Both the position numbers and the translations under genes were made by a program. Shown here piece by piece: positions 37,440-61,799 of a DNA stretch of 64,000 nt (its first letter is position 1; each line of letters starts with the position of its first letter). This stretch comes from Kiritimatiellia bacterium (GTDB lineage: Bacteria > Verrucomicrobiota > Kiritimatiellia > UBA8416 > JABMPJ01): NCBI GenBank assembly GCA_030745755.1, contig JASLOA010000007.1, positions 11,974 to 75,973 of the forward strand, written 5' to 3'. Below the pieces are notes generated by a model. That model made no database searches, was not told the DNA's origin, and saw only the letters and a program-made list of their open reading frames with translations.

Positions 37440-39092
37440 ATGCCTGGAGATATCATGCTGCTGTTGTTTGCACTGACTGTTATAGTGTGCCACTCGCAGG
37501 AAGCGGGAGCGGCAACGATTTCCGTGAAGAACTTTGGCGTAGCAGGCGATGGCACAAGTGACGACGGGCCAGCCATCCGTAAAGCGGTTGAGGCCGCGAC
37601 CAAAGGCGGCCCAGGAACAAAGCTTGTTTTCGAGAGCAAGGCCTACCGCCTTGGAGCAAACAAGGGCGGCAATGGCCAGATCAGGCTGGTCGATGTAGAC
37701 GGCCTGACCATCGACGGGAACGGCTCGACCCTACTCCTGCATCCTCAGAACGGGATGTTTGACGTCCTCAAGTGCCGGAACGTCGTCATCCGCGGATTTA
37801 CGATCGACTTCGATCCACTGCCGTTCACACAGGGCACAATCAGCAGCGTAGATGCAGGCAAAGGCTTCTTCGATCTGGAGTTCCACAAGGGATATCCCCT
37901 CCCTTTGCCGGATGAAGCAGTGAAGAAACGCTTGGGCAAAGGCGGCTGGCGCTGGGGATCGGTCATCGACCCGAAGGAACGCCATCGCCGCTGGGGAATT
38001 GCAGACCACTACTCTATCGACTCGATCAATTTGGTTGCGGGCAGAACCTATCGCATCACGGTTGCGCCCTCGGATGCCAAACAACTCACTCCTGTCCGTC
38101 CCGGTGATAGATTCTTCCTGCCATTACAGCTTACCGAGAAAGGTGAACGCGCCTTCGGCTCAAACATCACGGTCAAGGAGTCGACAGACTGCACGATTGA
38201 GGATATCACGATCTACAGCGCACGTTGCGGCATGAACTACGCTATCACCCGCAATGAAGGCCTCATCACGCTGCGTAACAACAAGATCACCTTCAAGCCG
38301 GGCAGCACCCGTATCTGTACGACCTGGAAGGACGGCATGCACGTCAAAGATAACCGCGTTGGGCCGCTAATCGAGGGGTGCTATTTCGAAGGCATGCTGG
38401 ACGATAGCATCAACATCAGCGCTAATACAGCCATGGCGACTAAGATCATCTCACCGACAGAGTTTCAACTAATGGGTCCAGCGTTCTCTGCGGGTGACGA
38501 TGTGATGGTCTTCGAACCGAAGACCGGTAAGATACGGATGACGATGGTCGTCAAAGCGACGGCGCAAGGTAGAGACCACCTCGTAACGTTGGCCGATCCA
38601 ATGGAGGGCGTGATTACAGGGCGCAAACAACGCGAGCACGTAAAGTCCACCCACTTCTACAATATGAGCTACGTCAACAACGGCTTTATCGTTCGCAATT
38701 GCACGTTCAAACCCCAACGCCGACATGCACTACTGGTCCGTTGCAGCAACGGGCTGTTTGAAGGAAATACGGTTGATGGCGTCGGCGGAGCTGCCGTGTG
38801 GATGGGCAATGAGATGGGCAGCTTCTACGAAGGACCGTTCCCCACGAACAATATAGTCCGCAATAACACCATCAACAACACACAATTGCCTGCTATCAAA
38901 ATCTACACCCGTGCAGGCGGCAAAGCGAAGCTCACACGCAACATCAAGGTTGAGGACAATACAATCACAGTGCTTCCTGAGAAGCTGGGCATCTCGGTTC
39001 TCAATGCTGCATCCGTCGAGTGTAGGGGCAACCGCATTCTTGATCAACAGGGGACGGATATTGGGGCAGCAGGCGTGATTCTTAATGATTGA
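37440..39092 (+). CDS. secreted right-handed beta-helix protein (pectate-lyase superfamily / GH28-like)
   Basis: Signal peptide MPGDIMLLLFALTVIVCHS. ISVKNFGVAGDGTSDDGPAIRKAVEAA is typical of GH28 / Pectate_lyase_3. Repetitive N-x-I/V beta-helix coils. Confidence 0.7.
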   Translation: MPGDIMLLLFALTVIVCHSQEAGAATISVKNFGVAGDGTSDDGPAIRKAVEAATKGGPGTKLVFESKAYRLGANKGGNGQIRLVDVDGLTIDGNGSTLLLHPQNGMFDVLKCRNVVIRGFTIDFDPLPFTQGTISSVDAGKGFFDLEFHKGYPLPLPDEAVKKRLGKGGWRWGSVIDPKERHRRWGIADHYSIDSINLVAGRTYRITVAPSDAKQLTPVRPGDRFFLPLQLTEKGERAFGSNITVKESTDCTIEDITIYSARCGMNYAITRNEGLITLRNNKITFKPGSTRICTTWKDGMHVKDNRVGPLIEGCYFEGMLDDSINISANTAMATKIISPTEFQLMGPAFSAGDDVMVFEPKTGKIRMTMVVKATAQGRDHLVTLADPMEGVITGRKQREHVKSTHFYNMSYVNNGFIVRNCTFKPQRRHALLVRCSNGLFEGNTVDGVGGAAVWMGNEMGSFYEGPFPTNNIVRNNTINNTQLPAIKIYTRAGGKAKLTRNIKVEDNTITVLPEKLGISVLNAASVECRGNRILDQQGTDIGAAGVILND

Positions 39093-39118
39093 GGGCGATC
39101 GGGAAAGAGACAAACACA

Positions 39119-39180
39119 GCCCAACAAGCACATGCAGCATATTGTCGCTGGGCGCCAAATGCTGATGTGAAGCGTTAGCA
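39119..39180 (+). other. attC site (R'' GCCCAAC ... R' GTTAGCA)
   Basis: cacatgcagcat/atgctgatgtg L boxes. Confidence 0.6.
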
Positions 39181-39205
39181 GTAGGAATAATTTGGAAAGG
39201 AGTAT

Positions 39206-39388
39206 ATGAAATCTAAAGATATAGGATTCTTTGCCATGGGAGTGGGGGCACTGGGGATTATCATTCCAATTCTAGTCCTCATTGGAGATAGTTCAAAAAT
39301 TATTCAAATCGGGATTATGATCTCAGGATCGATCATATTCGGATGTGGTTGCATTGCCGCAGTTATCGCACAGAACAAGGAACAATAA
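39206..39388 (+). CDS. small membrane protein (60 aa), hypothetical
   Basis: RBS GGAAAGGAG. Two TM helices. Confidence 0.45.
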   Translation: MKSKDIGFFAMGVGALGIIIPILVLIGDSSKIIQIGIMISGSIIFGCGCIAAVIAQNKEQ

Positions 39389-39450
39389 CTGCTATCAAAG
39401 CATTGGAGTTTACGTCGCTATAGCGCCGAAACTCAAGGTGGACGTTAGAA
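39383..39450 (+). other. attC site, family K (R'' CAATAAC ... R' GTTAGAA)
   Basis: tggagttt/aaactcaa stem. Central cgctatagcg palindrome. Confidence 0.6.
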
Positions 39451-39458
39451 TCAAGAAA

Positions 39459-60875: not shown

Positions 60876-60898
60876 CCTGTACAGATTAGAGGAAGAAC

Positions 60899-61138
60899 AT
60901 GACAACCGTAACTCTGACGGATTTCAGAAGTCACGCATCAGGTATGCTGACAAGAGTAGAACAAGGAGAGACCCTTGTGGTGCTTCGTCACGGGCGACCT
61001 ATTGCCGAAGTGTCGCCTGTTACCTGGCCGCACAGCGGTCAGCCTTCCTGGAAACGACAAGCTCTCCGCCTGTCGACCAAGGGGGCGGGGCTTTCCTCGG
61101 CCATCCTTGAGGATCGGGATCATGAAGACATTTCTTGA
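60899..61138 (+). CDS. Phd/YefM-type antitoxin (VapB role)
   Basis: MTTVTLTDFRSHASGMLTRVEQGETLVVLRHGRPIAEV. Confidence 0.7.
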   Translation: MTTVTLTDFRSHASGMLTRVEQGETLVVLRHGRPIAEVSPVTWPHSGQPSWKRQALRLSTKGAGLSSAILEDRDHEDIS

Positions 61139-61535
61139 TTCATCTGCTTTCGCAAAACGGTTTGTGGATGAAGCCGGAAGCGACAAGGTCGAGGATACCT
61201 GCGCCCAAGCCTCGGATCTTGGTCTGAGTGTGGTTTGCGTACCCGAGATCATTTCTGCGCTCAACCGTCGCCGAAGAGAGAGATCGCTAACGGCTGCTCA
61301 ATACACAAAAGCAAAGCAACAACTCCTTGATGATGTCCGCGATGCGGACATCATCCACCTTGCGGTGCCCGTGGTGGGCTCAGCCATCGGCGTTCTTGAG
61401 GCAAGCCCAGTCCGCGCCATGGATGCCTTGCACATAGCCTGCGCGCTGGAGTGGGGAGCAGAGCTGTTTGTCTCTTCAGATAGGAAACAGCTGAGCGCCG
61501 CTCGGCGCGCAGGACTGAAAACGCATGCAGTCTAG
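61122..61535 (+). CDS. vapC: PIN-domain toxin
   Basis: MKTFLDSSAFAKRFVDEAG... 137 aa PIN fold with acidic residues. Confidence 0.75.
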   Translation: MKTFLDSSAFAKRFVDEAGSDKVEDTCAQASDLGLSVVCVPEIISALNRRRRERSLTAAQYTKAKQQLLDDVRDADIIHLAVPVVGSAIGVLEASPVRAMDALHIACALEWGAELFVSSDRKQLSAARRAGLKTHAV

Positions 61536-61538
61536 ATT

Positions 61539-61597
61539 GGCCAACAGGCCCACTGGAGCGTAAGGCTAAAGCCGCCGCTCAGTGGCAAGCGTCAGGT
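61539..61597 (+). other. attC site, family A with degenerate R' (R'' GGCCAAC ... R' GTCAGGT)
   Basis: cactggagcgtaaggctaaagccgccgctcagtgg. Confidence 0.6.
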
Positions 61598-61610
61598 GAA
61601 AAGGAACAGT

Positions 61611-61799
61611 ATGACTGCCAGAAACAGCAGACCAAACATCATCTACATTCTCGACGACGACATGGGGTATGGCGACGTATCATGTTACGGCCCTGAATTC
61701 AACCGGGTGGCTACGCCAAACATAGACCTTTTGGCAAAGCAGGGAATGTCAACAGACACCCAAAGCGTTACACAGCGACACGGTAAACCGGGCGCGTGA
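61611..61799 (+). pseudogene. sulfatase N-terminal fragment (62 aa, truncated by a family-C attC)
   Basis: MTARNSRPNIIYILDDDMGYGDVSCYGPEF... is the typical sulfatase N-terminus. Runs into attC sequence and stops. Confidence 0.65.

Follow-up and report, generated by a model that had tools for sequence, protein, structure and literature searches.

We analyzed a stretch of 64,000 nucleotides (from here on the window, whose coordinates are used throughout) from a Kiritimatiellia bacterium, assembly GCA_030745755.1, contig JASLOA010000007.1, positions 11,974 to 75,973. It contains a sedentary chromosomal integron of ordinary architecture, in a metagenome-assembled genome (MAG), and the cassettes of this integron carry two intact sulfatase genes (S1 and S2) and three sulfatase fragments (FA, FB and FC). 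As an earlier note on this DNA had claimed, the two C-terminal fragments begin at attC crossovers, FA at the G/TT cut itself (the slash marks the crossover) and FB within 1-3 nt of the G/TT position.

The integron and its sulfatase cassettes

The integrase gene lies at the left edge of a GC-poor block (GC 0.50-0.56 at about 28-62 kb, compared with 0.60-0.63 in the flanks), and the cassettes follow to its right.

27362-28840, minus strand: integron integrase gene intI (TIGR02249, 431 bits against a cut-off of 265)
28998-61808, plus strand: array of about 39 cassettes, delimited from the attC map, the cassette table and own-attC complementarity

The intI product is a tyrosine recombinase of 492 aa, in which TIGR02249 matches residues 182-491 and Pfam finds Phage_integrase and SAM_4. 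The sole close relative of this integrase, from a Verrucomicrobia MAG, is 87% identical. We also observed that the integron-integrase core (residues 182-491) is preceded by an N-terminal extension of about 130 aa, which has no Pfam match and is conserved in the Verrucomicrobia relative (L003 627-1973; 83% identity over residues 44-492).

On the plus strand, right of intI, about 40 imperfect palindromes start with xxxxAAC and end with GTTxxxx; an attC-like site already lies at 28926-29003, close to intI (region 28841-28997 read). The bottom strands of the attCs fold as hairpins made of an R-box stem, unpaired spacers and an L-box stem with bulged extrahelical bases (z-scores -1.8 to -4.2), and compensatory pairs are present even in a rough alignment. 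A brute-force scan for AAC...GTT hairpins was too noisy for use, and a covariance model for attC was given up, since the 5' boxes were out of register in the MAFFT alignment and RNAalifold retrieved 8 pairs only. Boundaries were instead tested by the complementarity of each cassette start to its own attC. In a circular cassette the six bases after the crossover and the R'' box come from the same attC, and therefore complementarity between them is expected. Among the 39 cassettes delimited, with genes tabulated from precomputed calls on the source contig, 23 had their first 7 nt perfectly complementary to their own R'' box (four variable positions), while 10,000 permutations gave 1.4 on average and never more than 8. 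The cassette boundaries are thus real. Searching the other retrieved loci with the five attC families (nhmmer) gave no match.

The sulfatases lie in the array as follows.

39445-40940, plus strand: intact sulfatase cassette S1, gene 39459-40880, attC of the D2 family at 40887-40946 (PF00884; PDB 5g2t)
44005-45542, plus strand: intact sulfatase cassette S2, gene 44032-45456, D2 attC at 45489-45548 (PF00884; PDB 2qzu, 2e-64)
46071-46761, plus strand: 5'-truncated sulfatase cassette FA, codons 46070-46696, own attC at 46709-46767 (PDB alignment, mismatch to its own R'')
53212-54312, plus strand: 5'-truncated sulfatase cassette FB, D2 attC at 54259-54318 (homology to the full-length protein P0001 and to an ortholog at locus L166)
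61611 (ATG) to about 61757, plus strand: N-terminal sulfatase stub FC (PF00884 profile positions 1-45)

The count of two intact genes and three fragments given by the earlier note was confirmed by PF00884, which also matches all three fragments, and by tblastn of the window, which returned exactly these five segments and no others. Both intact open reading frames (ORFs) cover the full profile (39345/39459-40880 with 152 bits, 44032-45456 with 185 bits) and contain the C-x-P/A-x-R motif, CQPAR at residue 54 of S1 and CSAYR at residue 52 of S2, as expected for the intact formylglycine (FGly) sulfatases proposed at 39459 and 44032. In the fragments, all three of which lack the motif, the profile is covered at positions 235-300 (ORF around 46070-46696, FA), 144-300 (53242-54303, FB) and 1-45 (61596-61799, FC). 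The nearest PDB relative of S1 is the Bacteroides 2-O glycosaminoglycan sulfatase 5g2t (8e-136). The five segments are at most 30% identical to one another and are therefore independent acquisitions rather than duplicates.

The S1 cassette starts with GTTAGAA, the complement of its own R'' (TTCTAAC). With the GH39-like gene and the PfkB/ARH pair described below (GH, glycoside hydrolase; ARH, ADP-ribosylglycohydrolase family), whose cassette starts also match their own R'' at 4/4 positions, S1 is a genuine mobile cassette. The cassette sulfatases (39459, 44032, and position 207 of L166) begin at the conserved first beta-strand, without a signal peptide. By comparison, 96% of the sulfatases of Pontiella agarivorans carry one (PMC10880615).

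Junctions of the truncated cassettes FA and FB

Each of the two C-terminal fragments adjoins an attC of the D3 family.

46019-46076, plus strand: D3-family attC of the HicAB cassette (family alignment, translation, bottom-strand fold with z = -3.0)
53161-53217, plus strand: D3-family attC with the non-canonical R' GTACTGC at 53211-53217 (alignment; the fold retains the R-box stem with one mismatch)

FA retains roughly 208 codons from the 3' end of an S1_15-like sulfatase gene, whose full product would have about 510 aa. In PDB alignments (structures 6s20 and 9bau) its residues 1-134 align to residues 322-456 of S1_15 sulfatases, with similarity starting at residue 322-330 of about 513. The attC at 46019 is one of seven near-identical sites, and family identity extends to CGAC-GTT. 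Its R' heptamer, GTTATCT (46070-46076), is a hybrid, with its G derived from the attC and TTATCT supplied by the sulfatase codons V-I-F. The crossover falls between 46070 and 46071, the GTT encoding the Val of VIFTSDNG, at which homology to sulfatases sets in, and both spacer and GTT are fully canonical. The start of FA agrees with its own R'' at 1/4 variable positions and hence the native 5' end of this cassette is gone.

We considered whether contigs mis-joined at repeated attCs could have created such junctions. The source is a MAG and attCs are 58-nt repeats with 80-94% identity. A mis-join would nevertheless be expected within the shared attC sequence, not from an attC into the interior of a gene; the independent Logan contigs L002 and L085, from other runs, show 100% identity across 7.9 and 6.6 kb, stretches in which the FA junction and S1 lie; and FB is present on two contigs. 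We regard the chance of an assembly artefact as negligible.

FB is 85% identical to the full-length protein P0001, encoded in a conventional sulfatase/GH cluster without attCs (locus L001). It lacks about 127-141 N-terminal codons, the break being at codon 127 of the P0001 gene call or at codon 141 counted from an upstream ATG (L001 9959). DNA homology between FB and the L001 gene spans 53211-54262; it starts with GTACTGCTAYGGCAAG at 53211, that is with GTACTGC, and there is none upstream, which places the crossover at 53211/53212. The homologous K/T-Y-C codons read AAG TAC TGC or ACG TAC TGC in L001 and L167, containing GTACTGC, and AAA TAC TGC, thus ATACTGC, in L166. Because GTACTGC is native in full-length relatives, the odd R' box is sulfatase sequence; the notion of an attC R' (GTTCTGC) changed by point mutation was rejected for the same reason. 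At its other end FB reads into its D2 attC and stops at the TGA of the site (54301-54303). Two further FB homologs end with ..AEQxVAQRRG.., a peptide encoded by a D2-type attC.

The full-length form of the FB cassette was found in L166 (1-4293), a second cassette array, in which NagA-like amidohydrolase and aldo-keto-reductase cassettes follow the sulfatase. There the FB ortholog is a canonical cassette, with an upstream R' of GTTCGGC and a D2 attC whose R'' is GCCGAAC, identical to the R'' of FB's own attC. The L166 cassette is full-length, has the same type of attC and starts as FB's own R'' predicts; FB thus derives from a full-length cassette by truncation. This evidence also bears on the view that the fragments never were full-length cassettes and that pieces of genes were captured when the cassettes formed. 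The origin of cassettes is obscure and FA has no known full-length cassette relative, which would favor such a view; on the other hand L166 has the complete FB gene in the same attC family, with the same gene-attC junction and the predicted start, and we hold a capture of gene pieces to be very improbable.

Both junctions thus lie at R' cores, and the hybrid R' boxes are native to sulfatase codons. The link to attCs seen in the earlier note therefore stands, but the starts that it gave, 46077 and 53218, mark the ends of the R' heptamers and not the crossovers at 46070/46071 and 53211/53212. Its idea that the fragments are products of recombination between an attC and a secondary site is supported for FA and FB but not for FC, whose junction is on the R'' side. 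Heptamers in sulfatase genes were scored for R'-likeness with a matrix derived from 36 bona fide R' boxes found in the array; GTTATCT ranked among the best 0.1%, and GTACTGC, which agrees at 6/7 positions with the complement of the upstream attC R'', among the best 2-3%.

Taken together, we consider it probable that a sedentary integron with sulfated-polysaccharide cassettes had FA and FB truncated by its integrase at intragenic R'-like sites, FC being cut by another deletion. In this account, the integron would first have acquired large cassettes from the sulfated-polysaccharide toolkit of the lineage (sulfatases of five subfamilies, GH110-like, GH39-like, a beta-propeller protein, a sugar kinase pair), among which FA and FB would have been full-length. 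The integrase would then have recombined the R' core (G/TT) of the upstream attC with an R'-like heptamer inside the sulfatase gene, GTTATCT for FA and GTACTGC for FB. We infer that IntI catalyzed both events and that the simplest route was one step, an intramolecular deletion of the cassette start together with the 5' part of the gene. In experiments, IntI1-3 insert cassettes at GWT sites of the genome, and deletions arise when excision uses another site (bioRxiv 10.1101/2022.09.11.507474).

Several points weigh against truncation by the integrase. FA's core GTT fits the GWT consensus while FB's core GTA departs from it, although this consensus is that of IntI1-3 and may not be that of the present IntI. 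The 3' spacer of attC 53161 has 3 nt, compared with 4-5 nt in six relatives, and the FB crossover is therefore either an exact G/TA cut, in a site whose spacer was already short, or is offset by 1-3 nt. For FA we found no close full-length relative (at most 64% identity), so that its breakpoint is defined at the protein level and by the attC-family alignment. We saw neither an excised product nor a circular form, nor any polymorphic allele of full length, and FC does not fit the mechanism. Finally, this IntI is divergent and only distantly related to IntI1-3, and secondary-site activity is ascribed to it by analogy, as a putative property.

The GTA core and the short spacer leave room, at FB, for a microhomology deletion. 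Integrase-independent loss, by slippage or illegitimate recombination between the R' region of an attC and a similar short sequence in the next gene, would draw on the resemblance of the R' expected for attC 53161 (GTTCTGC) to GTACTGC (6/7, and up to 8/10 with an L167-like parent), and the spacer short by 1 nt fits an offset junction. Moreover, attC hairpins are known to provoke slippage (bioRxiv 10.1101/2022.09.11.507474, discussion), and FC and the fused cassette at 51934-53211 show non-canonical deletions in this same array. However, the retained A of GTA confines the crossover to at most 2-3 nt of microhomology, and slippage would neither bring two independent junctions to the G of R' nor favor sites ranking in the top 0.1% and top 2-3%; it also has to contend with the canonical spacer and GTT of FA. 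As an explanation of the fragments we find it improbable.

A two-step route would still involve the integrase: a toxin-antitoxin (TA) cassette or block with a D3-type attC inserts at an intragenic R'-like site, and the upstream half of the gene is lost later. Immediately upstream of each of the three fragments is a D3-family attC of a TA cassette, experiments show efficient insertion of cassettes at genome sites other than att (bioRxiv 10.1101/2022.09.11.507474), and the junction expected on the right-hand side after insertion (attC...G / target) is the one observed. This route requires one more event per fragment, the array retains no N-terminal half of FA or FB, and the upstream cassettes start with canonical boundaries; we judge it unlikely, yet somewhat less so than slippage. 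The tblastn search of the window likewise returned no N-terminal part of the FA or FB gene.

Coming back to truncation of a full-length FB cassette, we looked at how the fragment has evolved since. FB has a dN/dS of 0.12 against L001, compared with 0.06-0.10 among full-length orthologs, with no unique changes at invariant columns. Relaxed constraint is thus not apparent in FB; either the truncation is recent or the fragment is still constrained.

Some observations on the relatives of FB are worth recording. In L167/L168 (L167 2973-4520) the same sulfatase has a decayed D2-type attC and directly follows a gene for a 750-aa beta-helix protein; this copy may be a domesticated cassette. P0002 (JGI 3300072015, contig of 4276 nt) is a homolog of 339 aa, 80% identical to FB, which starts three residues after the first TTG of FB and lies outside an array, adjoining a peptidase M19 gene; it may represent a second truncation, independent or inherited. 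In the non-integron sulfatase/GH cluster L001 (6150-16930), a repeated motif (GCAATCCnAAnTGCCAT ... AATGGAnAGTTG ... TATA) stands upstream of several genes and, judged from its sequence, looks like a shared promoter or operator. The L001 5' UTR (untranslated region) resembles the R' of L166, making it a candidate remnant of a cassette boundary, and overlaps the motif repeated upstream of other L001 genes.

The terminal fragment FC and the rest of the cargo

FC lies at the right end of the array, between two attCs that depart from the canonical form.

61539-61597, plus strand: D3-family attC of the Phd/PIN cassette, with the non-canonical R' GTCAGGT (family alignment, fold)
61755-61814, plus strand: terminal degenerate D2-family attC (R'' AAC changed to CCC, R' GTT changed to GGG)
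61827-64000, plus strand: chromosomal flank, start of a GH13-like gene of 971 aa that runs off the window (gene call in L083; Pfam Alpha-amylase, 30.8 bits; GC 0.61)

About 47-49 sulfatase codons are present in FC; homology ends at about 61751-61757, before the CxPxR motif, where homologs read LAxxGMxFTDAHSxSxVCTPTRY. The ORF then runs into the D2-type attC in the same frame as FB and stops at 61797-61799. A G/TT crossover cannot join the 5' part of a gene to a complete attC and does not explain FC in this way. Moreover, the break is on the R'' (5') side of the degenerate attC, where IntI does not cut, and this puts FC outside the IntI mechanism. FC is best seen as a decayed terminal cassette that a different deletion cut short, next to R'' of its own attC. 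Its relatives in a metagenome scan reached 55-70% identity only, and at this distance neither the parent nor the 3' breakpoint is defined at the DNA level. We also considered FC as the missing N-terminal part of FA or FB and rejected this, as FC is of another subfamily (DDMGYGD type) and its profile range does not adjoin theirs.

The terminal attC is the last element of the array, 12 nt before the GH13-like gene (ATG 61827). Its outer triplets, CCC and GGG, are changed yet still complementary, and its interior is off the family at about 5 positions. A minus-strand ORF at 61920-62768 is probably spurious, since the true flanking gene is on the plus strand from 61827. The attCs at 53211 and 61591 have non-GTT cores (GTA and GTC), which should block recombination and keep each upstream TA cassette tied to the sulfatase fragment behind it.

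The remaining cargo is of two kinds. About 24 cassettes, of 450-790 bp, encode toxin-antitoxin systems (PemK, RelB/YafQ, ParE, HicAB, BrnTA, Phd/YoeB, HigBA, PIN), a cargo typical for sedentary chromosomal integrons. Large enzyme cassettes of 1.5-2.3 kb occupy the distal half of the array and include, apart from the sulfatases, the following.

37410-39444, plus strand: cassette with a GH110-like beta-helix protein of 550 aa, gene 37440-39092 (Pfam Beta_helix; GH110 alpha-1,3-galactosidases in PDB)
42190-44004, plus strand: cassette with a GH39-like protein of 568 aa, gene 42221-43927 (PF01229)
55524-57153, plus strand: cassette with a 495/506-aa protein of unnamed family, protein 55550-57070, attC 57101-57159 (AlphaFold2 model, Foldseek)
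57882-60139, plus strand: two-gene cassette with a PfkB sugar kinase and an ADP-ribosylglycohydrolase-family (ARH) protein, D2 attC 60086-60145 (Pfam, NCBIfam)

The beta-helix protein at 37440-39092 resembles GH110 by sequence, matching PDB entries of this family at 3e-16 to 1e-11 (8pvs at 3e-16 over residues 24-481; 7jw4/9beh at 1e-12 to 1e-13). The GH28 label it had received earlier must be dropped, as no GH28 family or structure is among the Pfam and PDB matches. The GH39-like TIM barrel was retained with reserve: PF01229 is above the Pfam cut-off, yet weakly so (32.6 bits against 26), and covers profile positions 50-260 of 472, and the PDB match to a GH39 beta-xylosidase is at 1.4e-3. The 495/506-aa protein has no Pfam, NCBIfam or PDB sequence match. 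Its AlphaFold2 model (pLDDT, the confidence score of the model, 90.9) combines a jelly-roll with a beta-propeller, and Foldseek matches GH117, GH43, GH93 and GH33, with a TM score (structural similarity) of 0.38/0.53 to GH117 4u6b. The propeller announced at 55550 is therefore predicted by the model, while the likeness to glycosidases is at the level of the fold and no sequence family backs it. This protein belongs to a large family conserved in polysaccharide degraders, and one homolog adjoins a sulfatase gene and a GH29 fucosidase gene in L169.

We compared the frequency of sulfatases in this array with two backgrounds. Upstream of 80 related intI genes, about 262 kb in all yielded no sulfatase match. 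In Pontiella agarivorans sulfatases make up 4.6% of ORFs (PMC10880615); against this rate, 5/39 cassettes gives P=0.03 and 5/68 ORFs P=0.2. Enrichment, as asserted by the earlier note, is thus strong compared with other integrons but marginal compared with a sulfatase-rich Kiritimatiellales genome, and the cargo looks as though it had been drawn from the genes of the lineage itself. The proposal that the integron shuffles genes for sulfated-polysaccharide degradation holds insofar as these enzymes are on genuine mobile cassettes, from their complementarity to their own R'' and from the full-length FB ortholog carried as a canonical cassette in L166; the word "enriched" is what becomes marginal against the host class.

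A few units of the array are unusual. The DUF433/DUF5615 pair at 49451-50097 is the sole cassette with minus-strand genes. Ahead of the beta-helix cassette, 37192-37409 is a unit of 218 nt with no ORF and a 138-nt attC-like element. The attC at 41436-41577 is 142 nt long, has ends like those of the 61-nt sites at 39390 and 42135, and contains an insert of about 80 nt. The compound cassette 51934-53211 combines a BrnT/CopG pair with ORFs of 161 and 54 aa, and there is no attC between 52479 and 52511. Its start matches the R'' of its attC at 1/4 positions, which suggests that an attC was lost and two cassettes became fused.

attC families and comparison with known systems

The attCs form tight families, with at least 80% identity inside the boxes. 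The D2 family (40887, 45489, 54259, 60086 and 61755) belongs to S1, S2, FB, the PfkB/ARH pair and FC, respectively, and thus to 4/5 sulfatase cassettes (hypergeometric P = 2.7e-4). FA's attC shares its family with that of the 495-aa protein (57101-57159), and the TA cassettes have mostly D3-type attCs. Inside the boxes the D2 sites are 79-94% identical, compared with at most 30% for the sulfatase genes. As a cassette keeps its own attC, the association of D2 with sulfatases suggests repeated attachment of D2 to different sulfatase genes in one lineage. The ORFs of FB, ARH and FC enter the D2 attC in the same frame and use its TGA as stop, giving the tail ..AEQSVAQRRGKPRA, and the 3' joint between gene and attC is exactly at the AAC of R''. 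Moreover, one sulfatase was found in four states: a gene outside cassettes (L001), a full-length cassette (L166), a copy with a decaying attC (L167) and a truncated cassette (FB).

It is tempting to read in this array the life cycle of metabolic cassettes in a lineage rich in sulfatases, with D2 attached independently to four unrelated sulfatase genes (in frame in three cases), one sulfatase caught in four states, and conserved V-I-F codons (GTT ATC TTC) that by mimicking R' would make the family prone to attack by the integrase. We offer this as a tentative reading and rather doubt it as a whole; if it is true, such series would make the birth of cassettes directly analyzable. The pair of full-length and truncated cassettes, together with a cargo-specific attC family, provides concrete material for studying how cassettes come into being and how they are destroyed.

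Antibiotic resistance is what integrons are chiefly noted for, while chromosomal ones are mainly associated with TA genes and genes of unknown function. An integron that carries sulfatases and glycosidase-like enzymes in a marine-type polysaccharide degrader suggests that integrons help to move parts of the toolkit for sulfated glycans between Kiritimatiellia and Verrucomicrobiota. In the literature searched we found no paper on sulfatase cassettes or on integrons of Kiritimatiellia; what is new here is the host, the sulfatase/glycosidase cargo, the probable natural footprints of secondary-site truncation with a parental cassette form, and the link between attC family and cargo.

With sedentary chromosomal integrons, such as the Vibrio cholerae superintegron and IntegronFinder arrays, this system shares a divergent intI, long co-oriented promoterless cassettes each with an attC, many TA cassettes and repeated attC families. 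It differs in its Kiritimatiellia host, in the integrase extension of about 130 aa, in the sulfatase/glycosidase-like cassettes of 1.5-2.3 kb and in an attC family tied to cargo. The sulfatases themselves resemble the formylglycine-dependent sulfatases of family S1 from polysaccharide degraders of the sea and the gut (in SulfAtlas terms S1_9-like, S1_15-like and others), with PF00884 plus SGSH_C and the C-x-P/A-x-R motif, the gene S1 being very near 5g2t; they differ from them in being integron cassettes, in lacking signal peptides and in that 3/5 copies are non-catalytic fragments.

Recombination by integrases at secondary sites was reportedly described by Francia in 1993 and by Recchia in 1994. 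The two truncated cassettes probably represent natural footprints of an integrase at non-att sites inside genes, a reaction only recently shown to be frequent in the laboratory. In fused or compound cassettes of class 1 integrons, which arise by loss of an attC (PMC4670013), loss or inactivation of a site welds neighbors together, as seems to have happened at 51934-53211 and with the GTA and GTC cores at 53211 and 61591. By contrast, FA and FB keep their attC and it is the next gene that is truncated, while the published fusions lose the attC. Closest to our findings is the secondary-site recombination studied by Loot et al. (bioRxiv 10.1101/2022.09.11.507474), in which the G/TT of an attC is likewise joined to a short R'-like site in ordinary DNA, with disruption or deletion of genes. 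Here the events would have taken place in nature, within an array and on genes of neighboring cassettes, one of the targets is GTA, and the integrase is a distant one known from its sequence.

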